Origin: Chlorobiota bacterium
GTDB taxonomy: Bacteria; Bacteroidota; Ignavibacteria; OLB7
Direction: 5' to 3'
NCBI GenBank assembly: GCA_016710285.1
Contig: JADJXR010000001.1
Coordinates: forward strand, 3,373,338-3,437,337
DNA: 64,000 nt
Made by a program: the position numbers and the translations under genes. Numbering within the stretch: position 1 is the stretch's first letter; every line of letters begins with the position of its first letter. Shown here piece by piece: positions 730 to 55,253 of this stretch. The notes beneath the pieces were generated by a model, which saw only the letters and a list, made by a program, of their open reading frames with translations, was not told the origin of the DNA and did no database searches.

Positions 730-755
730 GCCTGTTGAATTTGTGAGAGGGGAAA

Positions 756-782
756 AGCCGCCCCAGCTCAGCTAGGGCGGCT
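756..782 (-). terminator. hairpin downstream of rpe (AGCCGCCC-loop-GGGCGGCT), followed on the minus strand by TTTTCCCC
   Basis: 8-bp perfect stem read directly from the sequence. The T-run is short. Confidence 0.35.
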
Positions 783-808
783 GCTACCGAAGACTATCAT
801 TGGAGTGG

Positions 809-1516
809 CTATGCTGCGCAGGCTTCCCGCATTTGCTTCATGGTCAGAGTGGGGTTGGGGGTTCCAAAAATTCCTGAGCCGCTGACCACAACGTCAACGC
901 CGGAATCGTACACGGCGCGGATGTTGTCCAGTTTGATCCCGCCGTCGGCTTCCACCAAGCAATCGCTGCGCCCGCAGCTGGCAAGCATCTGGCGCAGCCG
1001 TTCGGCACGGCGGAAAAGCGTTGGGATAAACGCTTGCCCGCCAAACCCCGGCTCCACCGACATCAACAACACAAGATCAACGTAGGGGAGGATGTCCTCC
1101 AGCGTGCTGAGCGATGTCGCCGGATTGAGCGTCACCCCCGGGCGGCAGCCAAGCTGGCGGATGCGGTCAATCGTCCGGTGAAGGTGAAGCGCGGCCTCGA
1201 CGTGAACGGTGATGTACGTTGCGCCGGCGTGCGCAAAATCTTCCAGATAGCGGTCGGGGTCGCTTATCATCAGGTGGCAATCCAGCGGAAGCTCCGTCAC
1301 CTTCCGCAATGCCGCAATCACTGGCGGACCAATGGTGATGTTCGGCACAAAGTGGCCATCCATCACATCAACATGAAGGAAATCGGCACCGGCTTCTTCC
1401 AGCATCTGCACGTCTTCGCCCAATCGAGTGAAGTTGGCAGAAAGAAGGGAGGGGGCAAGGTAAAGTTTACGGGCTATGGACATGGCTGATGTTGATTCTG
1501 TTGGTTCTGGGATCAT
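809..1516 (-). CDS. rpe: ribulose-phosphate 3-epimerase
   Basis: Rpe motifs are present (APSLLSANF..., HVDVMDGHFVPN, SVEPGFGGQAF). The ATG at 1516 overlaps the Lon-like gene stop as ATGA; an alternative ATG lies at 1483. Confidence 0.9.
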   Translation of the reverse strand: MIPEPTESTSAMSIARKLYLAPSLLSANFTRLGEDVQMLEEAGADFLHVDVMDGHFVPNITIGPPVIAALRKVTELPLDCHLMISDPDRYLEDFAHAGATYITVHVEAALHLHRTIDRIRQLGCRPGVTLNPATSLSTLEDILPYVDLVLLMSVEPGFGGQAFIPTLFRRAERLRQMLASCGRSDCLVEADGGIKLDNIRAVYDSGVDVVVSGSGIFGTPNPTLTMKQMREACAA

Positions 1517-12242: not shown

Positions 12243-14759
12243 ATGAGTACGAAACTCTTAATGCTATTATTGATAGCATCAGTAAGCACAGCAATAGCAC
12301 AACATCTTACACCAATTCCATCATCTAATATTATTGCATTTAATGATGCTCCATTAACCGCAATTCCAATAGATGGATCATTGCTAGTAGGAGGACGATT
12401 TTTAAAATGTGCACCATATAACACTGGAATTGCCACTGTTGATCCGGTATCTGGGAAGATGTTAAATGATATCAGGTTTGATAATGGAGGGAGTCTTGTC
12501 GTATCCGATAGCGGAGGTGGGTATTATCTATTAGTAGGGGCTACCCCACCAGTGAAGTACGGTACTTCAATCCTGAAGAGGATACAATCCGATGGAAAGG
12601 TCCTGTATAGCGTCCCCCTGTTTGTTAATGGAATTGATCGTTTTTCTGGAACGATTGAATGTATGGCCGCAAAAGGAGATACTGTCTATTTAGGTGGTAG
12701 GTTCTCAACAATCAATGGCATTCCAAGAAATTCCATTGCAGCAATTGAAGCGAGTTCCGGTACAATACTGGACTTTAACCCAACTGTAGATAGCAATGTA
12801 CAAAGCATGGTGATATATGGAAATGATATTGTTATTGGCGGATTGTTTGATACCGTGTTGGGTCAGCCGAGAACTGCTCTGGCAAGAATTAATCGCTATC
12901 AAGGAGTGTTGCATGATTGGCCAATAATGCCAACGGCATTAATGCGAACAAAGTTTAATGATCTAATTCATGGTTATAATCGTTTAGTCATTAGCAAAGG
13001 TATACTATATACAATCCGAGGGGCTATTGATCTATCTACAGGAATATCAACCTCATGGAAGCCAGTGCCAGAAAATATTCCGTTAGCACCATATCCTATT
13101 CCACAGATTGTAGATGTTGATGTAAGCGCAGGTCGTATAATCGTTGTTGGTGAATTTACTGGAATCAATGGAAGAAAGCGCAATGGTATTGCTGTTTTCG
13201 ATGAAAAAACAGGTGAATTAACAGAGACGGATCCCAATAAAAACTGGTTAGACCATTATTCATTCCTATCGGCAAATTATTCTAGTGTGCAATGTGTTGG
13301 CTCAATTGCCTATATTGGGGGGATGGATAATTTTATTGGAAGAAAATCTATAGATGGACTAGCCGCGTGTGACATCCTAACTGGAGAAATACAAGAATGG
13401 GAAGTCGCATGCCTTCGACAAAAACCAGGTGCGCAGTACCCTAGTAAAGTAATATATGCTGATCAGAAGCGTGTTTTTGTCCTCGGTTCCCTTGGTTCGA
13501 TTGGTCACCAAATCGTTTCGCGTAATGGCTTTGTAGAATTGTCGAATTCAGGTGATAGAATTCTAGAATGGAATCCTAACTTCAGGAAATATGTGCGACA
13601 ACATTATAGCGATACGGTTGTGCAAATTTCATCAATTCTGATAATCGGTAATATTATTTATATAGGGGGTAATTTCGATTCAGTTAATGGTGTCGCAAGA
13701 AAAAATCTGTGCGCATTTGAACGCACAACCCGCAGCTTACTCCCATGGAACCCTGTAGTGCAAGGACAAATAATAAATGCTATGGCCTATGATAACAGTA
13801 CATTGTATATCGCTGGAAAATTCGATTCTATAAATGGAACAGAGCAACGTTTTGTAGGAGCTATTGATGCTGTAACAGGGGCAATAAAGCGGATAAATAT
13901 AAAAGTAGATACTATAGTTAATTTAATATCCATTCATGATGAACGGTTGTATATCGCCGGAGAATTTAAAGTGGTTAATGATAAAGAACGAAATGGTTTC
14001 GCGGTAATAGATATTCAAAATGGTACTCTTCTGCAAGAAGGGCCAATGCTACCAGCATTAGCTTCAGTTACTGCAATGCTAATATCAGATTCTATTGTGT
14101 ATTTATCTGGTACTCGATTGGGGGCTGAAGTGACACCAATAACAAACCCCATTGGTGGAAGAATGGCATTAGCAGGGTATAACCGTATCACAGGTGCAGT
14201 GCGATGGCAGCCAAATTATCCTATCCCAACGAACGTCAAGGCATCATCTCTAGTGCTGCATCATGGTCTATTATATGCTGGCGCGTTGATGCGCAATAGT
14301 GATAATAGCGGTAAATCATATATAACTACTACAGGGATATTCCAATATGATCCAGTAACAGGAGCAGAGATAGGAAGAACACTAAGCTCTAATACTCCAA
14401 TTATATTATCAATAGTTAATGATACGATTTTTGCAGCTGGACATTTTGATGGAGAAAATGGATGGTCAGGAATGGAGTTTTTTGCTAGATATGACCCTCG
14501 TCAAAATCTTGAAACTAATATTGTAGAAAATTATAAGAACCATTCTCTACACATATGGCCAAACCCAGCAAATAGCTTCATTGAGGTAAATAATGCTGGT
14601 ATGAAGTCAGCCACATTGAGAATCATAAATACTCATGGAGATGTTCTTGAGGAATACGACCTTGCAAAAACGAAATTGGTAGATGTTGGACATCTACCAA
14701 TAGGACAATATATAGCTCAAGTTGGTGTGTACAGCACGAAGTTCACAATATGTAGATAA
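12243..14759 (+). CDS. delta-60-repeat (DUF5122-like beta-propeller) secreted protein with a T9SS C-terminal domain; AT-rich
   Basis: Repeated GGxFxxVNGxxRNxIAAxDxxTGxLxxWNP modules. C-terminal ...HIWPNPANSFIEVNN...IAQVGVYSTKFTICR resembles a T9SS sorting domain. GC is about 37% against about 60% in the flanks. Confidence 0.8.
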   Translation: MSTKLLMLLLIASVSTAIAQHLTPIPSSNIIAFNDAPLTAIPIDGSLLVGGRFLKCAPYNTGIATVDPVSGKMLNDIRFDNGGSLVVSDSGGGYYLLVGATPPVKYGTSILKRIQSDGKVLYSVPLFVNGIDRFSGTIECMAAKGDTVYLGGRFSTINGIPRNSIAAIEASSGTILDFNPTVDSNVQSMVIYGNDIVIGGLFDTVLGQPRTALARINRYQGVLHDWPIMPTALMRTKFNDLIHGYNRLVISKGILYTIRGAIDLSTGISTSWKPVPENIPLAPYPIPQIVDVDVSAGRIIVVGEFTGINGRKRNGIAVFDEKTGELTETDPNKNWLDHYSFLSANYSSVQCVGSIAYIGGMDNFIGRKSIDGLAACDILTGEIQEWEVACLRQKPGAQYPSKVIYADQKRVFVLGSLGSIGHQIVSRNGFVELSNSGDRILEWNPNFRKYVRQHYSDTVVQISSILIIGNIIYIGGNFDSVNGVARKNLCAFERTTRSLLPWNPVVQGQIINAMAYDNSTLYIAGKFDSINGTEQRFVGAIDAVTGAIKRINIKVDTIVNLISIHDERLYIAGEFKVVNDKERNGFAVIDIQNGTLLQEGPMLPALASVTAMLISDSIVYLSGTRLGAEVTPITNPIGGRMALAGYNRITGAVRWQPNYPIPTNVKASSLVLHHGLLYAGALMRNSDNSGKSYITTTGIFQYDPVTGAEIGRTLSSNTPIILSIVNDTIFAAGHFDGENGWSGMEFFARYDPRQNLETNIVENYKNHSLHIWPNPANSFIEVNNAGMKSATLRIINTHGDVLEEYDLAKTKLVDVGHLPIGQYIAQVGVYSTKFTICR

Positions 14760-14776
14760 GGGAATAACACAACAAC

Positions 14777-14808
14777 CATCCGGCAGGTAAGCATTTACCT
14801 GCCGGATG
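14777..14808. terminator. perfect 14-bp hairpin CATCCGGCAGGTAA-GCAT-TTACCTGCCGGATG between the two delta-60 paralogs
   Basis: Read directly. No U-tract, so intrinsic-terminator function is uncertain. Confidence 0.35.
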
Positions 14809-14840
14809 CTCTAACCCATTCACGAAAAACCACAACTACA

Positions 14841-17420
14841 ATGAACGCTACAACTTCCATGTCTCGCCCACTTTTGCTCCTTCTGCTCCTCGCGTTCTTT
14901 TCCCCCGCAATGGCGCAGCAATGGGAAGTCCAGCCACTGCTCCCAGCTCCCGATAATGGAGTCTTGGATGTCGCGAAAATTCATGATCGCCTGATTTTTG
15001 CAGGGAAATTCACCGAGCTTGCCCGATGGAACGGAGGAACCGCACTGTTCGATCTCCACACCGCACAACCCAATCCTCGCTTCTTCTTCCCACGAAATGT
15101 CGAAGCTGCCATCCCGTACAACGGTGGTTGGTTGGTCTATATCCAAGATAGCGCGCTCCTCGGTAGAAATTATGGAACACTCCAGTGGCTTGGTGCAGAT
15201 GGGAACGTAAAACAGAAAATACCCCTGAAATTTAAAGACTCAGGACATGGAGCCAGTGGGATCAACACAATGGCTGCCGATGGAGATACTCTTTATGTTG
15301 CTGGTGGATTTTTTTCTATGAATGACCTAGAACGTGAATATGCCGCAGCACTCCGGATATCTACCGGAGAAATCCTGCAGTGGAAACCACGGGTCAATAA
15401 TTCTATACACTCCATAGTGGTGTCGAATACCGCAGTCTTTATGAGCGGGCTTTTCGACACAGTCTCTGGCAGCTATCAGAAGCGGATAGCACGGGTCTCG
15501 AAAGGCCAGGGTGAGTTGCAGCCGTGGCCGAAACCGATACCAGATCGGTTGACAAATCACTTTTCATTTTATATCAACAAAAAAATACTCTTATGGAAAG
15601 ACCAATTATTCACTGTCAATGGAAGCATGAACATAGAGACGGCAGAGGAAGGGATATGGAAACCATCTCCACTATTATTGGAGAAGCCAGGCCATCCGTT
15701 TTTTATTGCTGACATGACGATAGTGGGTGGGGTGATTTATACGGTTGGTTTTTTTTCATCAATGAACGATGAGCCGCGTAACGGCATGGCAGCATTTTCC
15801 GCAGAGAGCGGCAAGGTGTTGCCCTGGAACCCCAACAAGGGGTGGCAGCCAACAGCGGACAGAGTTGTCCCAACATTATATTTTATCCAGGTTGTGGATA
15901 CGATTGCGTATTGCGCAGGCAGTATCAATAATATCGGGGGCATCCCGGTTCGGGGGATTGGGGCAGTTGCAACCACCACGGGCCAATTGCTCCCCTGGAA
16001 TCCAAGCGTCTCCAACTATACAAGGATTAATAGAAATAGCATCATAGACCTTGTATCACCTGGTTTTCTTGGTGCATCGGAGGACGGAGTGTTAATGGCG
16101 ATCAGCGGAATCGGTACAATCGGCCAACCGCTGACGGCACGATCCGGAATTGCTGAGGTTGACCTCCGCACAGGAGCACTCTCGCCGTGGGACCCGGGCT
16201 TCCGCAGCCGGATGGATCCGGATAGTTTCTATCTGACCTATACGCACATCCATGCGTTGGCACTTCAAGGCTCAACCCTCTATGTTGGGGGTGTCTTCGA
16301 TTCCGTTGGTGGCGTTCCCCGCTCGCGGCTCTGCGCCTTCGATGCCACCACCCACGAACTCCTCCCCTGGAACCCATCGGTCGTCAATGGTGAGTATCCC
16401 GACAGCGTGATCCAGGGATATTGTTGCCACCCCCAAGCGATCTACATCATGGGAACCTTCGACAGCATCGGCGGGGTGGCGCAGAGGTATATCGCCGCAG
16501 TGGACCCGCAGAGCGGAGCGCTGCTGCCGTTTCAAGCAAACCCGAACCGCCCGGTAGCGGCAATGGCCTACAGCGATGGCCGGCTGTATGTTGGCGGGCT
16601 TTTCAGCACCATTGGTGGGAAGCCTCGGAACGGTTTTGCGGTGCTGGATGGGGTCAGTGGCGAGGCATTGGAGGAGGGACCGATGTTCCCGCCGCGTGCC
16701 ACGGTGCAATCGCTGGCGGTGGGCGACACGCTGGTCTATGTATCGGGGATTCGGTTAGGGAAGGAGGTGACGCCGATGATCCGTCCGATTATTGGAGATG
16801 GGAATGGTTTTGGGGGATACGACCGGACAAGCGGGGAGCTACGGTGGTTGCCGAAGTATCCAGTGCCAACGAACACCGGAGCCGCCCGTTTGGAGCTATC
16901 GCCGCGTGGGTTGATGGTCTCGGGGTTGTTTAGTCGGAAGCCATATCAATCCTTGCCTGGGCAGTGGGATTCCTCGAACAACGGGATGATGCGATTGGAC
17001 GCAAGAAGCGGGGAGGTAAAGGGTGAGTGGCCATTGATTGGGGGATCGAATTTTATTGAATGGTCAGATACGTTGCTGATCTGGGAAGAGTCTCCAGACG
17101 AGCAGCAGGGGATACGGATACCGTATTTAGCATTGCTAACGAACGAGCAGTCGAGCGGGGTTGTTGTTGGGCGGGTTGCAATGGAGGGTTCGGGGGAGTT
17201 GCGTGCCTACCCGAACCCATCGAGTGGTCGTGTTCGAGTGGAGTGTGAAGGAGGATGTGAAGGGAAGGAGTTGGAAGTGGTGAACCAGTACGGAGAGCGG
17301 GTGATGCAGCAGGGATTTGGCGAAGGCGGCGAGTGTGTGTTGGACCTTGGCGGCCTAAGCAATGGAGTCTATCTGGTTCGCATCGGAACCCGCAGCGCGA
17401 CGATTGTGGTGCAGAGGTAG
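14841..17420 (+). CDS. delta-60-repeat beta-propeller secreted protein with a T9SS C-terminal domain; GC-rich paralog
   Basis: Same repeat architecture as 12243..14759 (…LLPWNPSV…GGxFxSxGG). C-terminal ...LSNGVYLVRIGTRSATIVVQR. Confidence 0.8.
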   Translation: MNATTSMSRPLLLLLLLAFFSPAMAQQWEVQPLLPAPDNGVLDVAKIHDRLIFAGKFTELARWNGGTALFDLHTAQPNPRFFFPRNVEAAIPYNGGWLVYIQDSALLGRNYGTLQWLGADGNVKQKIPLKFKDSGHGASGINTMAADGDTLYVAGGFFSMNDLEREYAAALRISTGEILQWKPRVNNSIHSIVVSNTAVFMSGLFDTVSGSYQKRIARVSKGQGELQPWPKPIPDRLTNHFSFYINKKILLWKDQLFTVNGSMNIETAEEGIWKPSPLLLEKPGHPFFIADMTIVGGVIYTVGFFSSMNDEPRNGMAAFSAESGKVLPWNPNKGWQPTADRVVPTLYFIQVVDTIAYCAGSINNIGGIPVRGIGAVATTTGQLLPWNPSVSNYTRINRNSIIDLVSPGFLGASEDGVLMAISGIGTIGQPLTARSGIAEVDLRTGALSPWDPGFRSRMDPDSFYLTYTHIHALALQGSTLYVGGVFDSVGGVPRSRLCAFDATTHELLPWNPSVVNGEYPDSVIQGYCCHPQAIYIMGTFDSIGGVAQRYIAAVDPQSGALLPFQANPNRPVAAMAYSDGRLYVGGLFSTIGGKPRNGFAVLDGVSGEALEEGPMFPPRATVQSLAVGDTLVYVSGIRLGKEVTPMIRPIIGDGNGFGGYDRTSGELRWLPKYPVPTNTGAARLELSPRGLMVSGLFSRKPYQSLPGQWDSSNNGMMRLDARSGEVKGEWPLIGGSNFIEWSDTLLIWEESPDEQQGIRIPYLALLTNEQSSGVVVGRVAMEGSGELRAYPNPSSGRVRVECEGGCEGKELEVVNQYGERVMQQGFGEGGECVLDLGGLSNGVYLVRIGTRSATIVVQR

Positions 17421-21858: not shown

Positions 21859-23733
21859 ATGATGAACAACACAACACTAACCACTGGGAAGAAATACATC
21901 AAGGATATTTTTAGTGCTGAACAGTTTTTTAATATTCCAGAATATCAACGACCTTATGTCTGGGGGGATGAACAAATTAGTGCATTCCTTGAAGATGTAA
22001 GCAAGGCAATGGAAACTGACAGCAATAAAGAGTATTTCCTTGGCTGCATGATTTGGAACACTCGACAAGAAAGAGCGAGTAGAAATATTGAGTATGTATA
22101 TCAAGATATTTTAGACGGGCAGCAACGATTCATTACTTTATTTTTATTACATGGAGTTATTAGGGACATTTCGATCGAAGTTAAGCTTCAAGAGAATGTT
22201 CAAAAACGGCTTATTCAAGAGGCAGATGATTATAATAATATTCCTGCACGAAATAGAATTGAATTTGAAATACGAGACGATAAAGACTTTTTAGATAATT
22301 ATGTTATTAATTTAGGAGGCACTCTCAAGGTTAACGAAATTGAAGACGTTATCAATAGTCCAAAATCTGGTGCTTCAATAAAAAATATGGCATCAGGGAT
22401 TTTAATAATGAAAAAATGGTGGATTTATAAATTTAGTGAAAATCAAGGAAGTGAGGAAAAATATTTGGCCGATTTCTATAAATATCTTTCAACTAAAGTA
22501 CTTGCACTTTACTTAGCTACACCAAACAATCTAGATGATGCTTATAATTTATTTACTGTGTTAAACAGCAGAGGGCTCCAACTGCAGGTAAGTGATATTT
22601 TAAGAGCACAAAATCTGAGAGTAATCGAGAATGATGAATTGAGAAAGCTATACGCTTCAAAATGGTCTGATTTCGAAAATTCAATTGCGGCTCCTTACAA
22701 AGGATTCGATGATTTTCTTTGGTCACTGGTGTTTATTAAGATGAAATATCGTAGCGATGACAACAAAAGTTTGACTAAAGCATTTGAGTTTATGTTCAAA
22801 CGCAACATGCTCACAAAGGGGACGGACACTCTTGACTATGTCGGTAAGTATTTGAAGCACTATGAAGCCATCACTAACGGTAGTATAACGAACAGAGAAA
22901 GTCTAAACCTTTTTAGTAATCTAAATTTTATTCTTTCAAGTGTTTATGGTAGTCAATATATCACTCCTCTCATGCATTATCGTGAATGCTTTGGTGATAC
23001 AAGAATTGTCGAATTCTTAATCAAAATTGACAATCTGTTTTCGATTGGCTGGTTGTTGGGTCGCAGGCAGTCGTCAACAAGAACTTTTATTATCCTTCGT
23101 AAAATTGAATCATATTCTGATTTGGTGAAAAAGAAAGAATTAACGATAGACGAAGCGGTCGAAGATTTGCTCAATGATCCATGCTTACAATATGATTTTT
23201 ATGATGATGAAATTTCCTCAGATAAACCAATTGATATTGATGATTTTGCTATTCTACTTAACACCGAAAAATGGGGGAGCTTTTCCGGTACAAGAATCAA
23301 CAAGACAAGATACTTACTGTTAAAAATGGATTTGATTATGGGTAATCCATCAACTATTCTGCAATACAACAAAGATTCATCTTCTATTGAGCATTTGATG
23401 CCACAGAAAATTGAGGGGACACAATGGACTGTTCATCCAGCAAAACATAAAGAGTGGGTTCATAGATTGGGCAACCTTGTACTTATTGATAAAAACAAAA
23501 ATTCATCATTAAGTAATAAGCTGTTCAATGAGAAAAAAACAAAATATCATGGAGCAATTGAAACAAGAGCCAATACGAATTTCATTTTTATTGCTAATCT
23601 GAATTGGGACATTGATGCAATTAAAGCAAACCAAGAACGAACAATAGACCTGTTGATGCAATACTATAAAGGCAATAGTCTGAAATCCTTTCTGCAAATC
23701 AAAAAAAATATAAACTCTACTGTGTTATTATAA
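21859..23733 (+). CDS. GmrSD-family type IV (modification-dependent) restriction endonuclease, DUF262 plus DUF1524
   Basis: N-terminal DUF262/ParB-like motifs (FNIPEYQRPYVWGDEQ, ILDGQQRFITLFLL). C-terminal DUF1524/His-Me finger-like (IEHLMPQK...W...HRLGNLVLIDKNKN). GC is about 33%. Confidence 0.85.
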   Translation: MMNNTTLTTGKKYIKDIFSAEQFFNIPEYQRPYVWGDEQISAFLEDVSKAMETDSNKEYFLGCMIWNTRQERASRNIEYVYQDILDGQQRFITLFLLHGVIRDISIEVKLQENVQKRLIQEADDYNNIPARNRIEFEIRDDKDFLDNYVINLGGTLKVNEIEDVINSPKSGASIKNMASGILIMKKWWIYKFSENQGSEEKYLADFYKYLSTKVLALYLATPNNLDDAYNLFTVLNSRGLQLQVSDILRAQNLRVIENDELRKLYASKWSDFENSIAAPYKGFDDFLWSLVFIKMKYRSDDNKSLTKAFEFMFKRNMLTKGTDTLDYVGKYLKHYEAITNGSITNRESLNLFSNLNFILSSVYGSQYITPLMHYRECFGDTRIVEFLIKIDNLFSIGWLLGRRQSSTRTFIILRKIESYSDLVKKKELTIDEAVEDLLNDPCLQYDFYDDEISSDKPIDIDDFAILLNTEKWGSFSGTRINKTRYLLLKMDLIMGNPSTILQYNKDSSSIEHLMPQKIEGTQWTVHPAKHKEWVHRLGNLVLIDKNKNSSLSNKLFNEKKTKYHGAIETRANTNFIFIANLNWDIDAIKANQERTIDLLMQYYKGNSLKSFLQIKKNINSTVLL

Positions 23734-33334: not shown

Positions 33335-34039
33335 ATGAATCTTAACCTGACCACAGAAGATTATCTCCGCTCGCTGTACAAGCTGGAAAGCCGGGATCTG
33401 AAAGCCACGAACGCCGCATTGGCAAAGGAGCTGAACGTCACCTCGGCAGCGGTCACCGATATGCTGCGGAAGCTGGACGAGCTTGGGCTGGTCAGCTACC
33501 AGAAGTACAAAGGGGTGGCGCTGACGAAATCTGGGCTGGCGATTGCCACGCGCATCACCCGCCGGCATCGGTTGTGGGAGGTGTTCCTGATCCAGCACTT
33601 GCACTTTGCCTGGGATGAAGTCCACGACCTTGCCGACCAGCTGGAGCATATCCGCTCCGATGAGCTTACCGAGCGTTTAGATGAGTTCCTGGGCCACCCC
33701 CAGCACGATCCCCACGGCGACCCCATTCCCACCCGCGATGGAGTGGTCCCCGTCCGCATCCTGACCCCGATTGGCCAGCTTCAGCCCGGGGAGGAGGGGA
33801 CGGTGCAGCGGGTAAGCGACGAGTTCCCAGAACTGCTTCGCTACGCGGTGATGGTGGGGCTTTCGCTTGGTTCCCACATCAAGGCGATTGAGCGGATTCA
33901 GTTCGACGGCTCGGTGCGGCTGGTGGCCGATGGGCGCGAATCCGTTATCTCCGCCAAACTGGCCGAAAGCGTTTTTGTGGAGCTGGTTCCAGGAAGCTCG
34001 GTACGCCAAGCCAAGAAGAAATCAGGGGGGAAGAAGTGA
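33335..34039 (+). CDS. DtxR/MntR-family metal-dependent transcriptional repressor with a C-terminal FeoA/SH3-like domain
   Basis: DtxR N-terminal HTH (EDYLRSLYKLES...), metal-binding region (RRHRLWEVFLIQHL...DEVHDLADQLEHI), C-terminal SH3-like domain. Confidence 0.85.
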   Translation: MNLNLTTEDYLRSLYKLESRDLKATNAALAKELNVTSAAVTDMLRKLDELGLVSYQKYKGVALTKSGLAIATRITRRHRLWEVFLIQHLHFAWDEVHDLADQLEHIRSDELTERLDEFLGHPQHDPHGDPIPTRDGVVPVRILTPIGQLQPGEEGTVQRVSDEFPELLRYAVMVGLSLGSHIKAIERIQFDGSVRLVADGRESVISAKLAESVFVELVPGSSVRQAKKKSGGKK

Positions 34040-35491: not shown

Positions 35492-36340
35492 ATGGAGATG
35501 GATGGAATGGAGAATGGCATGAAGAACGGAAAAGAACATAGGCCGGAAGGAGTGGAATCGCCAGGAATTTCCCCGCTGGAAGTTCACGACCTCACCGTCA
35601 GCTACAACCGCCGGCCCGTGCTGTGGGACATTGATTTCACCGTGCCGGAGGGGAAGCTGATTGCGGTGGTGGGGCCGAACGGAGCGGGGAAATCAACGCT
35701 GATTAAAGCCGCAATGGGGCTGATCCCATCGGCCAGTGGTTACGTCCGGTTTTTTGGGCAGGGCCTTGCCGAAGCCCGCCAGCGTGTGGCCTACGTCCCG
35801 CAGCGGACCTCGGTGGATTGGGATTTCCCCACCGACGCGCTGGACGTTGTGCTGATGGGCCGCTACGGGCGGTTGCGGTTGTTCCAACGCCCCCGCCGTG
35901 CCGACGTTGAAGCCGCCCACGAAGCGTTGAACAAAGTGGGGATGCAGCAGTTCGCCAACCGGCAGATTTCGCAGCTTTCCGGTGGGCAGCAGCAGCGGGT
36001 GTTCCTTGCCCGCGCGCTTGCCCAGGATGCGGACCTGTACCTGATGGATGAGCCGTTCGCCGGGGTGGATGCCGCCACCGAGGCCGCCATTGTTGAGCTT
36101 CTTCGCCAGATGCGCGCCCTGGGGAAAACCGTCATCGTTGTTCACCACGACCTGCAAACCGTCCAAGATTACTTCGATTGGGCACTGCTGCTGAATATGC
36201 GGCTGATTGCCTTTGGCCCAATGGAGCAAGCCTTCACCAACCAGCTTCTGCAAAAAACCTACGGCGGGCGGCTGAACCTTCTGACAGAAGTTGCGGACCT
36301 GATACGCCACGAACAACGGAAGGAGCGGGACCCGCTATGA
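35492..36340 (+). CDS. metal ABC transporter ATP-binding protein
   Basis: Walker A GPNGAGKST, signature LSGGQQQRV, Walker B LYLMDEPFAGVD. The start is uncertain because several ATGs fall inside a short tandem repeat. Confidence 0.85.
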   Translation: MEMDGMENGMKNGKEHRPEGVESPGISPLEVHDLTVSYNRRPVLWDIDFTVPEGKLIAVVGPNGAGKSTLIKAAMGLIPSASGYVRFFGQGLAEARQRVAYVPQRTSVDWDFPTDALDVVLMGRYGRLRLFQRPRRADVEAAHEALNKVGMQQFANRQISQLSGGQQQRVFLARALAQDADLYLMDEPFAGVDAATEAAIVELLRQMRALGKTVIVVHHDLQTVQDYFDWALLLNMRLIAFGPMEQAFTNQLLQKTYGGRLNLLTEVADLIRHEQRKERDPL

Positions 36341-37632
36341 GCGAATCCGACCTTCTGGATTTCTTCCTGCTTCGCCAACACAACATCCGCGTGGTGGTGT
36401 TGGGGACGATGCTGCTGGGGATTGGCTCAGCGGCCATTGGCTGCTACGCCTTTCTTCGCAAACGCTCGCTGGTGGGCGATGCCGTTGCCCATGCCGCGCT
36501 CCCCGGGGTTGCGGTTGCGTTCATGCTGACCGGGGTGAAAAACCCGGCGGTGATTCTGGTTGGCGCGGCCATTGCCGGGTGGCTTAGCATGGTGGCAATG
36601 GACCTGATTGTCCGCCGCTCCAAAATCCGCGAGGATGCCGCAATCGGGATCGTCCTTAGCGTCTTTTTCGGCCTGGGAATCTTGCTGCTGACGCGGATTC
36701 AAAAAAGCGGATCGGCGGATCAAGCCGGGCTGGATAAATTCCTATTCGGCCAGGCCGCATCGCTGGTGACGGGGGATGTGGTGGTGTTCGGCGCGGTCAG
36801 TTTGGGGCTGGTGGTGGGGATTGTGTTGCTCCACAAGGAGTTCAAATCCATCTCGTTCGATGCTGACTTTGCCCGCTCGATCGGCCTTCCGGTGCGCGGG
36901 CTGGAGCTTGCCATGACCACGATGCTGGTCCTTGCCGTGGTTGTTGGAATCCAAGCCGTTGGGGTGGTGCTGATGGCCGCCATGCTGATTACCCCCGCCG
37001 CCGCCGCACGCTACTGGACCGACCGCCTGACGGTGATGCTGCTTTTGGCCGGAATCTTCGGCGCGGCGGCCGGCTACGGCGGGGCCTTTGTCAGCTACGT
37101 TGCGCCGCGAATGCCCACCGGCCCCTGGATCGTCACCGCTGGAACGCTCATCTTCCTTCTGTCGCTGCTTGCTGCCCCGCGCCGTGGGGTGATTGCCCGG
37201 GTCCTGCGTAACCGCCGCAATAGCCGCAAAACGTTGGAGGAGAATATCCTGAAAACCTTGTATCAGCTTGGCGAGGAGCCTGGGGGGATGTTCCGCCTTC
37301 ACACCGCCGCCGACGTTGCGCGCCGCCGCCGAATCCCGGAATCCCAGGCACTTCGTGGGCTGGGGGTGCTGCGCCGTAGCGGGTTTATCCAGCGGACCGA
37401 AAACGGATGGAAACTGACCCAAGAAGGGGAGAAGCAAGGGCGCAGAGTGACGCGGCTTCATCGCCTGTGGGAGGTGTATCTGACCGAGCACGTCAGCATT
37501 GCCCCGGACCATGTTCACGACGATGCCGAGTCAATCGAGCATGTGCTTACCCCCGAGCTGGAAGCTGAGTTAGAGGCCGTGCTGAACCGCCCCGCCAACG
37601 ACCCCCACCAACGCGCAATTCCATATCAATAA
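36337..37632 (+). CDS. metal ABC transporter permease fused to a C-terminal DtxR-family repressor domain (YtgCR-like)
   Basis: ABC-3 permease TM core, then a C-terminal 140 aa (ENILKTLYQLGEE...RLHRLWEVYLTEHVSIAPDHVHDDAESIEHVL...NDPHQRAIP) that aligns with the HTH and metal-binding regions of DtxR and of the dtxR gene at 33335. The start overlaps the ATPase stop (ATGA). Confidence 0.85.
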   Translation: MSESDLLDFFLLRQHNIRVVVLGTMLLGIGSAAIGCYAFLRKRSLVGDAVAHAALPGVAVAFMLTGVKNPAVILVGAAIAGWLSMVAMDLIVRRSKIREDAAIGIVLSVFFGLGILLLTRIQKSGSADQAGLDKFLFGQAASLVTGDVVVFGAVSLGLVVGIVLLHKEFKSISFDADFARSIGLPVRGLELAMTTMLVLAVVVGIQAVGVVLMAAMLITPAAAARYWTDRLTVMLLLAGIFGAAAGYGGAFVSYVAPRMPTGPWIVTAGTLIFLLSLLAAPRRGVIARVLRNRRNSRKTLEENILKTLYQLGEEPGGMFRLHTAADVARRRRIPESQALRGLGVLRRSGFIQRTENGWKLTQEGEKQGRRVTRLHRLWEVYLTEHVSIAPDHVHDDAESIEHVLTPELEAELEAVLNRPANDPHQRAIPYQ

Positions 37633-37642
37633 CCAAATACCG

Positions 37643-38455
37643 ATGGCCCAGAAACCACTCTCCATTCTCGGCTTGCTGATGGTGGCATCGGCAACCACTT
37701 TTTCCCAAGAGATGGCAACCGACCGCCCCGACCAGACGGAATCGTCGTGGGTGATACCGAAGGGATTTCTTCAGATTGAAACGGGCCTAAGCATTGGCCG
37801 CCACACGCCCCCCCAGATTTCCGGCCAAGCTGCCCTGACGCTGCAGAACCTGAATCTTGCTTCCACGCTTGTTCGCGTTGGCGTGCTGGAGCGGCTGGAG
37901 CTTCGGTTGGAAGGGGGGTATCGGGTGGAGCGGTCGGAAGCAACGCAAAGCGTGGGGCCGATTGAAGAATCAGTTGTGGAATCGCTGGAAGGAATGGACG
38001 CAGTTGCCGTTGGGGTGAAAGTCGGAATCGCCGAGGAAGATGGCCCGCTTCCAGAAACATCGCTGATCCTTCACACCACGCTCCCCGTTGGCGATTCTCC
38101 GTTCGGCCCCAGCTACGTTCTCCCCGATTTCCGTTTCACCCTTAGCCACTCGCTGGGGAAGTCACTCAGCTTGGGGTACAACATCGGTGCCGAGTGGGGC
38201 GATGCCGGAAACCCTCCCGACGGCATTTACACGCTGGTGGTTGGGAGCGATCTTGCCGAAACCATTGGCGGGTTTGTTGAGCTGTTCGGGACGCTTTCGC
38301 CTGGGGGACCGCCGCAGCATACGCTGGATGGAGGGCTGACCTGGGCCGCAAGCGATGACGTGCAGCTGGATGCCTCGGCAGGAATCGGCCTGACCGAATC
38401 GGTCGAGGATTTTTTCGCCAGTGCAGGGGTCTCCTTCCGGCTGAGTGCCTGGTAG
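37643..38455 (+). CDS. putative outer-membrane beta-barrel protein (MetA-pathway/transporter-like family)
   Basis: Signal peptide, alternating amphipathic beta-strand pattern, C-terminal ...GVSFRLSAW (aromatic terminal residue). Confidence 0.55.
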   Translation: MAQKPLSILGLLMVASATTFSQEMATDRPDQTESSWVIPKGFLQIETGLSIGRHTPPQISGQAALTLQNLNLASTLVRVGVLERLELRLEGGYRVERSEATQSVGPIEESVVESLEGMDAVAVGVKVGIAEEDGPLPETSLILHTTLPVGDSPFGPSYVLPDFRFTLSHSLGKSLSLGYNIGAEWGDAGNPPDGIYTLVVGSDLAETIGGFVELFGTLSPGGPPQHTLDGGLTWAASDDVQLDASAGIGLTESVEDFFASAGVSFRLSAW

Positions 38456-38610
38456 CCGCCCCGACCTTCGTCGGAATGACCGCCCCGACCTTCGTCGGGG
38501 TAGCCGAAGGTCTTTAGCCTTCGGTGTCTTCTTTCTAGAAATGACTGGGCCCCGACGGAGGTCGGGGCCGCTACCCCGTCTGTTATCAACCCCGTCGGGG
38601 GTCGAAACTG
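38452..38610. repeat. cluster of GC-rich palindromic repeat elements (CCCCGACCTTCGTCGG twice, CCGAAGGTCTTTAGCCTTCGG, CCCCGACGGAGGTCGGGG)
   Basis: Direct and inverted repeats read directly. A related copy lies at 54135-54270 and a shorter one at 44284-44313. Confidence 0.55.
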
Positions 38611-38641: not shown

Positions 38642-39559
38642 ATGGACCTCAACGCATTCTGGATTATTCTTACTGGCGCGCTGGCGGCGGGGGCTTGCGC
38701 GTTGGTGGGATCGTTTTTGGTGCTGCGGAAAATGGCGATGCTGGGGGATGCGATTAGCCACGCCGTGCTTCCCGGGATTGCCATTGCCTTTTTCCTGACC
38801 GGAAGCCGCGCGCCGTTGCCGATGCTGATTGGCGCGGGGGTGCTGGGGGTTGCCGCCTCGGTGATGATCGAGGCGCTTCACCGCAGCGGAAAATTGCAGC
38901 AGGATGCCTCGATTGGCATCACCTTCACGTGGCTGTTTGCTGTTGGGGTGATCCTGATCTCACTCTTTGCCGGCGCGGTGGACCTGGACCAGGATTGCGT
39001 GCTGTATGGTGAGATTGCCTACGTCCCGCTGGACCTGATCACCACCGGAAGCGGCGCAAGCCTTGGGCCGCGTGCGGTGTGGGTGGTGGGTGGAATCTTC
39101 CTGCTGAACCTTGTGTTTGTGGTGGCGTTCTTCCGGCGGCTGACCATCGTCTCGTTCGACCCCGCGCTGGCCGCCTCGCTTGGGATTTCCACCGCGCTGT
39201 GGCACTACGCGTTGATGGGGATGGTCTCGCTTACCACCGTTGCTTCGTTCGAGTCGGTGGGGGCAATTTTGGTGGTGGCAATGTTGATTGCCCCGGCGGC
39301 CACCGCCTACCTTCTTACCGAGCGATTGAAACGAATGCTTGTTCTTTCGGTGGCTTCGGGGGTTCTTTCGGCGGTTGGTGGATACTATCTTGCAGCACTT
39401 CTTGATGGATCGGTTGCCGGAGCAATGGCAGTGGTTGCCGGGGTGCAGTTTGCGCTGGCGGCGATTGCAAGCCGATGGTGGGCGATAAAGGAGCAGAAAT
39501 CCGCGGCGCGAAGCCATTTGCCCGAAATCGGAGAACAGCTGCCAGCGGCTGGCGGATAA
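38642..39559 (+). CDS. metal ABC transporter permease (second ABC-3 permease)
   Basis: ABC-3 permease TM pattern (GDAISHAVLPGIAIAF...). ATG at 38642 (MDLNAFW) is taken; the ORF track uses a TTG at 38630. Confidence 0.85.
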   Translation: MDLNAFWIILTGALAAGACALVGSFLVLRKMAMLGDAISHAVLPGIAIAFFLTGSRAPLPMLIGAGVLGVAASVMIEALHRSGKLQQDASIGITFTWLFAVGVILISLFAGAVDLDQDCVLYGEIAYVPLDLITTGSGASLGPRAVWVVGGIFLLNLVFVVAFFRRLTIVSFDPALAASLGISTALWHYALMGMVSLTTVASFESVGAILVVAMLIAPAATAYLLTERLKRMLVLSVASGVLSAVGGYYLAALLDGSVAGAMAVVAGVQFALAAIASRWWAIKEQKSAARSHLPEIGEQLPAAGG

Positions 39560-44283: not shown

Positions 44284-44313
44284 GGTAGCGGCCCCGACGT
44301 AGCCGGGGCTGCC
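44284..44313. repeat. short copy of the GC-rich palindromic repeat family (GGTAGCGGCCCCGACGTAGCCGGGGCTGCC)
   Basis: Shares the GGTAGC(C/G)GCCCCGAC start and the CCCCGAC/…CGGGG palindrome with the 38452 element. Confidence 0.3.
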
Positions 44314-44395
44314 TCCATTTCCCGCAAAAAATTCAGCACGTTGTTCGTGCTTCCTTCCAACTTCACACATCAACCTCCATTAACCGAGGAATCTT

Positions 44396-52723: not shown

Positions 52724-54103
52724 ATGATTGAAAAACTCCTTCGACCGGAACTGCAAGATTTAATCGCCGTTGGGGATTTCGAGACCTTCCGCGACATCAT
52801 CGAAGATTGGGAGCCGGCGGACTTTGCCGCCCTTGTTGATGATCTTTCCGAAGGGGAGCAGCTGGCCGTTTTCCGCAACATTGATAACGAGGTGGCGGCG
52901 GCAATGTTTGCCCACCTTGATCTGCCGCAGCAGTACCAGCTGGTTACCGAACTCCCCTACGATAACGTCCGCAACATCCTGAACGCGATGTCGCCGGACG
53001 ACCGCACCGCCTTGCTGGAAGGGCTTCCCGACGAGACTGCCGAGAAGCTGATGCGGATGCTGACCCGCGAGGAACGCACCGTTGCCGAAACGCTCCTTTC
53101 CTACCCCGAGAACAGCGTTGGCCGCCTGATGACCCCGGACTTCCTTGCCATGAAGCCGGACTGGGCCGTTCGGCAAGTGCTGGATTACATCCGCCGCCAA
53201 GCAAAGGATATCGAGACGCTGGATTGGATCTACGTGGTTGACGACGACAACCGCTTGATTGATGACATCCGCATCCACGAATTCCTGGTCGCGCCGCTCT
53301 ATGCCACCGTCCGCTCCATCATGGATAACCAGTACGTCCAGCTGTCGGTGATGGATGACCAAGAATCGGCCATCGAGAGCTTCCGCAAGTACGACCGCAC
53401 CGTGCTTCCCGTTGTGGACCAGCAAGGGGTGATGGTCGGCATCGTCACCGTTGACGACGTGCTGGACGTGGTGGAGGAAGAAGCCACCGAGGACATCCAA
53501 AAGTTCGGCGGACAGGAAGCGTTGGACGAGCCGTACATTGACACCCCCATGCTCCGGCTTGTGCAAAAGCGGGCAACATGGCTGGTGGTCCTGTTCGTGG
53601 GGGAGATGATGACCGCCACGGCCATGCAATATTTTGAGGATGAGCTGGCCCGCGCAATCGTCCTTGCCTCGTTCGTTCCGCTGATTATCTCTAGCGGCGG
53701 AAACTCCGGCTCGCAGGCCGCAACCTTGATTATCCGTGCGCTGGCGTTGGGCGAGGTCCGGCTGCGCGATTGGTGGATGGTGATGCGGCGCGAGCTGTTC
53801 AGCGGCGCGATGCTGGGGCTGATTCTTGGCATCATCGGTTTTTGCCGGATTGCTGTCTGGCACACGGTGTTCGATTTTTACCCGGAGCATTGGTTCCTGC
53901 TTGGGCTGACGGTTGCCCTGTCGCTGATCTGCATCGTGCTGTTTGGGACGCTGACCGGCTCCATGCTTCCGTTCATCCTGAAACGCCTAGGGCTTGACCC
54001 CGCCACCTCGTCGGCTCCGTTCGTGGCGACGTTGGTGGACGTCACCGGGCTGGTGGTCTACTTCTCCATCGCCCTGATGATCTTGCACGGAACAATGCTC
54101 TGA
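52724..54103 (+). CDS. mgtE: magnesium transporter MgtE
   Basis: N-terminal domain, tandem CBS domains and C-terminal TM domain with PLIISSGGNSGSQAA. Confidence 0.9.
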   Translation: MIEKLLRPELQDLIAVGDFETFRDIIEDWEPADFAALVDDLSEGEQLAVFRNIDNEVAAAMFAHLDLPQQYQLVTELPYDNVRNILNAMSPDDRTALLEGLPDETAEKLMRMLTREERTVAETLLSYPENSVGRLMTPDFLAMKPDWAVRQVLDYIRRQAKDIETLDWIYVVDDDNRLIDDIRIHEFLVAPLYATVRSIMDNQYVQLSVMDDQESAIESFRKYDRTVLPVVDQQGVMVGIVTVDDVLDVVEEEATEDIQKFGGQEALDEPYIDTPMLRLVQKRATWLVVLFVGEMMTATAMQYFEDELARAIVLASFVPLIISSGGNSGSQAATLIIRALALGEVRLRDWWMVMRRELFSGAMLGLILGIIGFCRIAVWHTVFDFYPEHWFLLGLTVALSLICIVLFGTLTGSMLPFILKRLGLDPATSSAPFVATLVDVTGLVVYFSIALMILHGTML

Positions 54104-54134
54104 AAAAAACGGCCGCCGTGATTGAATTGGGATT

Positions 54135-54270
54135 GATAAAAGGTCGTTATCCTTTGGCCGACCGAACGGTAGCCGTCCCGACCTTCGTCGGGATTTATAA
54201 AAGGTCTTTAGCCTTCGGCGCCTCACTCCTCAAAAAAGACTTGGCTCCGACAAAATCGGGGCGGCTGCCC
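54135..54270. repeat. second copy of the GC-rich palindromic repeat element (…GGTAGCCGTCCCGACCTTCGTCGGGA…AAGGTCTTTAGCCTTCGG…CTCCGACAAAATCGGGGCGGCTGCCC)
   Basis: Same order of sub-motifs as 38452-38610, plus a duplicated ATAAAAGGTC(G/T)TTA. Immediately upstream of the COG0523 GTPase gene. Confidence 0.55.
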
Positions 54271-54293
54271 ATTGGCAATTACCAAACTCCCCG

Positions 54294-55253
54294 ATGCTTC
54301 CGATTACCATCATCACCGGATTTCTTGGATCCGGCAAAACAACACTGCTGAACAACCTGCTTCGCACCGATCACGGGGTTCGGTTTGGCGTGATCCAGAA
54401 TGAGTTCAGCGATGTTGGGATTGATGCGGAACTGATGGTGCAGGTGGATGCCGACATCTACGAGCTGAACAACGGTTGCCTTTGCTGCACCTTGCAGGAT
54501 GACCTTCTGCGGGTGATAGATGACCTGTTGGAACGCCGCCACCGCCTAGACCACCTGCTGATTGAAACCACCGGCGTTGCCCTGCCCACATCCACCATTA
54601 TCTCACTCTTCAACCATCCAGAGTATGGGGAAACTTTCCGGCTGGATGGAGTGGTTGCCCTGGCCGATGCGCGCCACCTTCTGGGGCAGATTTCCACAAC
54701 CCAGGAAGCCGCCCAGCAGTTGGCCTATGCGGACCTGATCCTTCTCAATAAAATTGATCTTGTCACCCAGCCGGAGCTTGCGGCGGTTCGGGGGGCAATC
54801 CGTGCCATCAACCCGTTGGCGCAGATTCGGGAAACGGAGTGGGCCGCTGTGGAGAGCGATGCAGTGATTGCCGTGGGCGGGTTCGGGGCCGCAGAGTTGA
54901 TCCAGCAGGAGGGGGACCACGACCACAGCCATGACCAGGGCCACACGCATCAATCGCCGATTGGCGCGGTGGGGCTGGCGATTCCCGGGCAGATGAACCT
55001 TGTGGCGTTCGAGGCGTGGCTGGACCTGACGCTTGCCTTGAACCATGAAAACATCTTCCGAATGAAGGGGGTGCTGAATCTTCCCGGGGCGTTGCGGCGG
55101 TACGTTCTGCAAGGGGTGCACCGTTTATGGAGCGGTGAGTATGGGAACCAGTGGGGGGAATCCGAGCGCATCAACCGCCTGGTGTTCATCGGGAAAAATC
55201 TTGACGGCGAGCAATTGAAAGAAGGGGTGGAGGGGTGTTTGGTGGCGGAGTGA
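54294..55253 (+). CDS. CobW/COG0523-family GTPase (putative zinc metallochaperone)
   Basis: GxxGxGK(T) P-loop (ITGFLGSGKTTLL), CxCC motif (GCLCCT), His-rich stretch (EGDHDHSHDQGHTH). Confidence 0.85.
   Translation: MLPITIITGFLGSGKTTLLNNLLRTDHGVRFGVIQNEFSDVGIDAELMVQVDADIYELNNGCLCCTLQDDLLRVIDDLLERRHRLDHLLIETTGVALPTSTIISLFNHPEYGETFRLDGVVALADARHLLGQISTTQEAAQQLAYADLILLNKIDLVTQPELAAVRGAIRAINPLAQIRETEWAAVESDAVIAVGGFGAAELIQQEGDHDHSHDQGHTHQSPIGAVGLAIPGQMNLVAFEAWLDLTLALNHENIFRMKGVLNLPGALRRYVLQGVHRLWSGEYGNQWGESERINRLVFIGKNLDGEQLKEGVEGCLVAE

Follow-up and report, generated by a model that had tools for sequence, protein, structure and literature searches.

Probable GTAG-tagged REP clusters with REPIN-like doublets between genes of a Chlorobiota bacterium

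A metal-uptake operon of a Chlorobiota bacterium contains, between an outer-membrane channel gene and a second ABC-3 permease gene, a GC-rich block of palindromic repeats (block A, 38451-38601) whose nature is the question addressed here. The operon lies in a stretch of 64,000 nt from assembly GCA_016710285.1 (contig JADJXR010000001.1, positions 3,373,338 to 3,437,337), which was analyzed as a whole and is referred to as the window. A second block (block B, 54110-54269) is located between mgtE and a cobW-family GTPase gene, and a single repeat unit (singleton C, 44284-44314) is found elsewhere in the window. An earlier note on this DNA had offered two explanations, namely, an intergenic element family similar to repetitive extragenic palindromes (REPs) or miniature inverted-repeat transposable elements (MITEs) and, alternatively, a structured RNA leader shared by metal-homeostasis genes. 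We conclude that the blocks are probably clusters of a GTAG-tagged REP family, arranged as doublets that resemble REPINs (REP doublets forming hairpins), and we propose below a mechanism for their spread and for possible effects of their hairpins.

Unit Y, hairpin X, and their arrangement in blocks A and B

The repeats are built from a unit, Y, of the form GGTAGC(C/G)G + CCCGAC-CTTC-GTCGGG, in which an unpaired GTAG tag is followed by a GC stem of 6-7 bp with a 4-nt loop. Reverse complements of Y are designated Z, and a second hairpin that accompanies Y is designated X. The units of the three loci are as follows.

Block A
38451-38474, plus strand: unit Y1, with the head GGTAGC (38451-38456), the stem arm CCGAC (38461-38465), the loop CTTC, and the stem arm GTCGG (38470-38474)
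38475-38500, plus strand: unit Y2, a head-to-tail tandem copy with the degenerate head AATGAC and the perfect hairpin CCCCGAC-CTTC-GTCGGGG (38483-38500)
38500-38524, plus strand: unit X_A, with a GTAGCC head followed by the perfect hairpin CCGAAGG-TCTTTAG-CCTTCGG (38504-38524)
38525-38547, no strand assigned: dimer spacer TGTCTTCTTTCTAGAAATGACTG, partly conserved in block B
38548-38575, minus strand: unit Z_A, an inverted Y reading GGTAGCGGCCCCGACCTCCGTCGGGGCC on the minus strand, with a GTAGC head of its own
38590-38601, no strand assigned: small GC hairpin CCCC-GTCG-GGGG (CCCCGTCGGGGG), possibly the remnant of a collapsed Y unit

Block B
54110-54157, plus strand: decayed Y''-X' pair, beginning with CGGCCGCCGTGATT and followed at 54140-54157 by AAGGTCGTTATCCTTTGG, a degenerate copy of AAGGTCTTTAGCCTTCGG
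54168-54193, plus strand: unit Y_B, with a GGTAGC head and the hairpin TCCCGAC-CTTC-GTCGGGA
54201-54218, plus strand: unit X_B, AAGGTCTTTAGCCTTCGG, without a GTAG head
54244-54269, minus strand: unit Z_B, an inverted Y reading GGCAGCCGCCCCGATTTTGTCGGAGC on the minus strand, with a GGCAGC head

Singleton C
44284-44314, plus strand: unit C, GGTAGCGGCCCCGACGTAGCCGGGGCTGCC, between an esterase gene and an ATP-grasp gene

The motifs that had been quoted for block A were all recovered: the 19-mer CCGCCCCGACCTTCGTCGG occurs twice (38456-38474 and 38480-38498), and the palindrome, the hairpin, and the small hairpin are present as well. The recurrence of the ordered set of submotifs in block B, where GGTAGCCGTCCCGACCTTCGTCGGG is found at 54168-54192 and the 18-mer AAGGTCTTTAGCCTTCGG of X_A is repeated identically, was likewise confirmed, as was the single copy at C. 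The third motif of the earlier note (CCCCGACGGAGGTCGGGG in block A) exists but is not a motif of its own, since it represents an inverted Y whose GGTAGC head lies on the minus strand (38570-38575); block B was found to hold, in addition, the decayed Y''-X' pair upstream. The tag is GTAG in Y1, Y_B, C, X_A, and, on the minus strand, Z_A, and GCAG in Z_B. Stem-loops of the size typical of REPs (a stem of 6-13 bp and a short loop) are formed by Y2 and Y_B, and the stem of Z_A comprises 9 bp with a loop of 4 nt.

The order in block A is Y1 forward, Y2 forward, X forward, spacer, and inverted Y; that in block B is the decayed Y''-X' pair, Y, X, spacer, and inverted Y. The blocks thus have the same head-to-head (HH) layout and differ in the number and order of their modules. 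A global alignment of 38475-38578 in block A with 54166-54272 in block B gave 78 identical positions of 109 and a score of 52, compared to -79 +/- 12 for shuffled sequences, and on this alignment the two blocks are homologous across ~105 nt. In both, the conserved spacer of ~50 nt, which carries X, is bordered by a forward Y on one side and by an inverted Y on the other. The resulting doublet of ~105 nt has the architecture of REPINs and of bacterial interspersed mosaic elements (BIMEs). Within the window, the Y core was matched five times with up to three mismatches (0.83 expected) and the X 18-mer three times (0.01 expected), a number that none of 100 shuffles reached. The recurrence of the repeats is therefore beyond chance. 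Scanning the full 64 kb for hairpins revealed the Y/X family at A, B, and C alone, and ~18 kb of extra flanking sequence, obtained via look-ups of flanking genes, contained no additional copy. Together, ~10 units in three loci were found across the ~82 kb examined.

Folded as a single strand, block A is predicted to form one long hairpin with the Y2 and X hairpins inside (-94.7 kcal/mol, z = -7.2). The Z_A hairpin, GGCCCCGAC-GGAG-GTCGGGGCC (38548-38569), lies in the inverted unit that pairs with Y1 and so closes this long hairpin over the entire block, with the tags outside; 22 of 24 positions of Y1 and Z_A are complementary, which makes them terminal inverted repeats of 24 nt. The predicted fold of block B is the same but weak (z = -2.5, marginally better than shuffles), and here Y'' pairs with Z_B. 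We also observed perfect complementarity between GACCTTCG in Y2 (38487-38494, comprising the loop and some of the stem) and CGAAGGTC in X (38505-38512). X therefore has the appearance of Y sequence that was rearranged, and Y2 could alternatively pair with X. One further hairpin near the start of the window (GCAGCCGCCC-tagctgagct-GGGGCGGC followed by TTTT, ~745-790, minus strand) is located just 3' of a ribulose-phosphate epimerase gene (809-1516, minus strand); it has the appearance of a regular intrinsic terminator, with a stem similar to the head region of Z_B.

Likeness to known repeat families

The features of Y are those of the GTAG-tagged REP superfamily surveyed by Di Nocera, De Gregorio & Rocco 2013 (PMC3733652). 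In that survey, GTAG REPs are stem-loops of 20-40 nt with 6-13 bp in the stem, a short loop, and an unpaired GTAG, or its degenerate form GYAG, at one end; they form HH dimers with outside tags and conserved spacers of 20-100 bp that may carry small stem-loops; they prefer sites between co-directional or convergent open reading frames (ORFs), near the 3' end of the upstream ORF; and their TAG often serves as a stop codon. The elements described here agree in the GTAG/GYAG tag, the GC-rich stem of 6-7 bp, the 4-nt loop, the HH dimers with outside tags, and the conserved structured spacer. They agree also in position, as can be seen from the genes next to blocks A and B.

37643-38455, plus strand: outer-membrane channel gene of the Phenol_MetA_deg family, ending in TGG TAG, as do its orthologues in relatives
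38642-39559, plus strand: second ABC-3 permease gene, separated by 186 nt from the outer-membrane gene upstream
52724-54103, plus strand: mgtE, upstream of block B
54294-55253, plus strand: cobW-family GTPase gene, downstream of block B

All three copies are located between co-directional genes and hard against the upstream gene. Block A starts within a stop codon (the TAG of Y1, 38453-38455, terminates the outer-membrane gene), block B starts 6 nt past mgtE, and C starts about 30 nt past the esterase gene. The GTAG tag, the GC stem-loop, the inverted dimer, and the position downstream of ORFs thus bear out the suggestion of a REP/MITE-like intergenic family.

A difference lies in the host. 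The GTAG families of the survey come from Proteobacteria, Cyanobacteria, Chloroflexi, and the Planctomycetes-Verrucomicrobia-Chlamydiae (PVC) group and not from Chlorobi or Bacteroidetes, for which only CGTC repeats are given (PMC3733652); the Y strings are absent from the five supplementary files of that paper. CGTC-tagged REPs carry a terminal CGTC tag, stems of 8-9 bp that start with A/T pairs, and a CCA tail. They resemble Y in being short tagged palindromes that occur mostly as HH dimers, whereas Y is tagged by GTAG, its 6-7 bp stem is purely GC, and the CCA tail is missing; the one CGTC within Y is internal and runs from the loop into the 3' arm. Repeats of the GTAG kind are well known; we found no earlier description of them in a Chlorobi-like wastewater lineage.

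With the REPINs of Pseudomonas and Enterobacteria, which are moved by REP-associated tyrosine transposases (RAYTs) (Bertels & Rainey 2011; Bertels et al. 2017, PMC5581495), the blocks share inverted REPs separated by a spacer, a doublet of ~100 nt, the folding into one long hairpin, the lack of a target-site duplication, and the lineage-specific occurrence. They differ in that the spacer holds the extra conserved hairpin X and in containing head-to-tail duplications, a rarity in the majority of the families described. E. coli BIMEs (e.g., the malE-malF REPs), to which the blocks have no sequence relation, likewise combine REP units with linkers into mosaics that lie in operons between co-transcribed genes; any effect on mRNA would here be assumed by analogy. 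REP clusters of E. coli stabilize upstream mRNA and attenuate transcription.

Occupied and empty sites in related species and the question of a regulatory role

Proteins identical to those of the window were found in GCA_001567195.1 (LMYZ01) and in two other assemblies. LMYZ01 is bin CHB4 ("Chlorobi") from anammox granules (Speth et al. 2016). The lineage is sparsely sampled, the nearest CobW homologues being 76-79% identical and the next 45%. In related species, the gap between mgtE and cobW measures 4 nt (two species) or 59 nt (a third) and contains neither Y nor X, compared to 190 nt in the window. Judged from these junctions, block B is therefore a lineage-specific insertion and not a conserved leader. 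The adjacency of mgtE and cobW itself is conserved across the clade (L114 4610-4615, L119 2741-2746, and L118 2491-2551), which suggests that the Mg2+ channel gene and the COG0523 metallochaperone gene may be co-transcribed. Such co-transcription, if real, must run through block B in the species of the window.

The situation at locus A is more complex. The outer-membrane gene stops with TGG TAG in all relatives. Relative L126 has a gap of 89 nt with one decayed unit (GGTAGCGGCTTCCACTAAGTCGGGGC), which is preceded by a GGTAGC tag, and the closest relative (L140) has a decayed gap of 115 nt; two other relatives carry unrelated tandem repeats. In the alignment, Y1-Y2-X (~70 nt) is an insertion right after TGGTAG, and the inverted Y falls where L126 has its decayed unit. 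The spacers of relatives at locus A fold no better than shuffles (z = -0.3 and -1.3). On this comparison, the pattern is one of decaying and re-expanding repeats and not of a conserved RNA, and the spot after the outer-membrane gene behaves as a repeat hot-spot across the clade. An X-like stretch of L140 (GTCTGTAGCC) was treated as a chance match, as the alignment did not uphold the similarity. The tandem arrays of the two other relatives (L141-L145, last 37 nt, and L127-L129, after the outer-membrane gene) are a (GAAGGAT)n microsatellite and a G-rich tandem 14-mer, (GGGGATCGGAGGTC)n, and the latter has CGGAGGTCGGGG in common with the inverted Y. Short-read contigs break at these tandem repeats of the relatives, too.

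These sites bear on two explanations that do without a RAYT. The first is a conventional MITE, that is, a noncoding element of ~125 nt with Y1 and Z_A as terminal inverted repeats that was moved by the DDE transposase of a full-length insertion sequence (IS) elsewhere. Block A does have terminal inverted repeats (24 nt, 22 of them matching), lacks coding capacity, and behaves as an insertion in comparison with related species. However, the flanks of A (...GTGCCT before and CCGTCT... after the block) and those of B show no direct repeat, which is weak evidence, from two cases, of insertion without target-site duplication. The unit occurs also singly (C) and in tandem (Y1-Y2), as REPs do; GTAG-tagged ends are typical of RAYT substrates; and no IS or transposase gene is present in ~100 kb. 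We consider a MITE unlikely.

The second is that the hairpins evolved locally as transcript-end or processing structures and were kept alike by selection or gene conversion, with no transposition involved. All three copies begin 0-32 nt after a co-directional gene upstream has reached its stop codon, X_A, with a T-rich run behind it, scores as terminator-like, and locus A has had a Y-like hairpin since before the species split. On the other hand, terminator-like sites were detected only weakly, at X_A and one other site in block A, and not at all in block B; U-tracts are missing from the Y hairpins; and the junction that received B formerly measured 4 nt. Moreover, convergence would not be expected to produce 16-24 identical nt at unlinked loci and in a contig from a different metagenome-assembled genome (MAG), and the assembly breaks described below suggest further near-identical copies. 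Local origin without transposition accordingly appears improbable as a full account.

A shared cis-regulatory RNA, i.e., a riboswitch or leader responding to a metal, or to a factor dependent on one, and governing the downstream permease and cobW genes, would fit the observations that two of the three copies precede metal-homeostasis genes in the orientation of transcription and that block A is strongly structured as RNA. Searches with Rfam 15 at gathering thresholds returned no match in the whole window. With permissive settings, block A matched only BSnc120, a Brucella small RNA model, at 19.5 bits versus a threshold of 114, and block B matched nothing. No sigma-70-like promoter was detected in block A or B. 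The earlier note had called for a covariance analysis of the hairpins; pair counts on the seven Y units, a number without statistical power, gave no significant signal, the observed values being reached by 104-250 of 500 shuffles. The sole compensatory change among the Y units is the outer stem pair of Y_B, which is T-A where Y2 has C-G. The copies are alike by near-identical sequence with reshuffled modules and not by structure-preserving substitutions. These null results, together with the empty mgtE-cobW site in three related species and the third copy next to unrelated genes (esterase and ATP-grasp), make a shared metal-responsive leader very unlikely, as do the differing module composition of A and B, the weak fold of B, and the shuffle-like folding of the decayed locus-A sequences. 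The suggestion of an RNA leader for metal-homeostasis genes is therefore not supported. Nothing indicates a metal-specific role of the blocks.

Hardly credible, finally, is the explanation that the units are sites for a DNA-binding protein, e.g., operators to which the DtxR-family regulator (gene at 33335-34039) would bind. In its favor are the palindromic form of the units and the metal genes beside two of the loci; however, neither Y nor X is found upstream of the first genes of the operon, and searches allowing up to three mismatches returned only A, B, and one near-match in a coding region. The units are located at gene ends within the operon and not at promoters, no promoter-like site was found there, and B is missing in relatives. 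X as a DtxR- or Zur-type operator was likewise rejected, as no X-like site was found elsewhere in the window, including upstream of the operon.

The operon comprises, in this order, genes for the DtxR-family regulator, a cREC domain protein, ZnuA, an ATPase, an ABC-3 permease, and the outer-membrane channel and, after block A, the second ABC-3 permease and a Haem_bd protein. The first permease (36337-37632) carries a C-terminal Fe_dep_repr_C domain, the metal-binding and dimerization domain of DtxR-type repressors. This fusion is kept in all related species that were fetched, in which the gene also encodes 431 amino acids; such a combination of permease and metal-sensing domain is unusual. Elsewhere in the window, a GmrSD-type (type IV) restriction endonuclease gene (21859-23733) is situated in a sharp low-GC island. 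The GC content of 0.36, compared to ~0.57 for the window, suggests horizontal acquisition of this gene. A stretch of lower GC content (0.40-0.45) at 12243-17420 encodes two large beta-propeller proteins whose C-terminal sorting domains are of the type IX secretion kind, a feature that fits an organism of the Fibrobacteres-Chlorobi-Bacteroidetes (FCB) group.

Signs of copies beyond the three loci and the proposed mode of spread

Independent contigs assembled with k=31 from different sequencing runs broke inside both blocks. All seven contigs at block A end at base 38509, and all eight at block B start at 54170 or 54191, while C was read through in nine of ten cases. Each break-point 30-mer occurs only once in the window, and A and B share no more than 18 nt of exact sequence with the remainder of it. 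The branches in the assembly graphs must therefore involve sequence that the window does not contain, be it the Y-X junction of further genomic copies or variants carried by other strains. A copy outside the window was found at the start of QWHP01000049.1 (L088), a contig of 64% GC that is labelled Actinobacteria bacterium ATB1. It begins with the reverse complement of GTAGCCGCCCCGACCTCCGTCGGGG-TTGGTAA-AAGGTCTTTAGCCTTCGGCG, a Y-X composite (within 1-125) in which X plus flank is identical to the X of block B at 22 of 22 positions and the Y core matches the inverted Y of block A. The contig reflects either mis-binning or sharing of the element across lineages. Since contigs break inside A and B and a Y-X copy occurs in another MAG, these data argue for more copies outside the window. 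L088 also contains a second, unrelated inverted repeat of 22 nt at 68-125.

L088 was the one true family member among the matches listed (at least 100) when a genome collection was scanned with the loose pattern GTAGCSGNCCCGACNNNNGTCGG; almost all other listed matches were chance matches in high-GC genomes, and none had an exact Y. Metagenome contigs gave three matches to the pattern AGCCGNCCCGACCTTCGTCGG, all of them within coding sequence of high-GC organisms and thus chance. Viral contigs scanned for the Y-X composite gave no match, nor did a BLAST search of block A against plasmids, and six-frame translations of A and B matched none of 5.8 billion predicted proteins at E <= 1. Two Verrucomicrobiales MAGs, HK-STAS-VERR-3 (L007 ~953-975) and HK-STAS-VERR-4 (L015 3155-3177), carry a single Y-like unit, GTAGCCGCCCCGAC-CTCG-GTCGGGG, with identical flanks in both; related GTAG units may thus exist in Verrucomicrobia of activated sludge.

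REP-RAYT systems such as E. coli TnpA-REP and the Pseudomonas REPINs provide the biology on which the following mechanism is modelled. By analogy, the elements would be nonautonomous DNA that spreads in the form of single-stranded hairpins, mobilized by a single-copy RAYT, a Y1-type transposase that would recognize the hairpin together with the GTAG tag. Tandem duplication of units would have expanded the doublets (Y1-Y2 in A and the decayed Y-X pair in B), and local enlargement may have occurred by replication slippage or recombination. Once transcribed, hairpins of such high stability at the 3' end of the upstream cistron could act as an incidental barrier to 3'-to-5' exonucleases or as a partial attenuator, as judged from other REPs, and this effect could uncouple the levels of the upstream and downstream cistrons.

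Several points weigh against clusters of a mobile GTAG-tagged REP family. Occupation of locus A appears to predate the split of the species, and its pattern could in part reflect local evolution rather than transposition. The GGTAG of Y1 overlaps the ancestral TGG TAG stop codon and may owe its presence in part to coincidence; Y2 and X_B have no GTAG tag. Only three loci were found in ~82 kb of the genome. The contig breaks could stem from strain polymorphism in the samples, and the L088 copy may be due to mis-binning. Neither a gene for a Y1 HUH transposase of the RAYT type (PF01797) nor any other transposase gene was found in ~100 kb of annotated sequence, and the mobilizing enzyme is thus assumed; its absence from such a stretch is nevertheless expected, because RAYT genes are single-copy. 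We still regard GTAG-tagged REP clusters with REPIN-like doublets as the probable explanation. A bolder version, for which we see little likelihood, would be that the Y-X-inverted-Y doublet replicates actively, in the manner of a REPIN, in a Chlorobi/Kapabacteria-like lineage; the near-identical Y-X copy on the 64% GC contig binned as Actinobacteria would then signify transfer of the element, or of its transposase, among unrelated organisms of one reactor community. If true, such movement across lineages would contradict the view that inheritance of REPIN-RAYT systems is strictly vertical.

The blocks should be annotated as REP/REPIN-type elements and not as riboswitches, terminators, or operators of the metal-uptake operon, and they would explain why short-read assemblies of this organism always break downstream of the outer-membrane gene and upstream of cobW. 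Their presence suggests that the range of GTAG-tagged REPs includes a Chlorobi/Kapabacteria-like lineage, for which the mgtE-cobW junction provides a clean pair of occupied and empty sites for dating insertions. If the cognate RAYT is found, the lineage would offer a compact system in which to follow REPIN dynamics outside the Proteobacteria.

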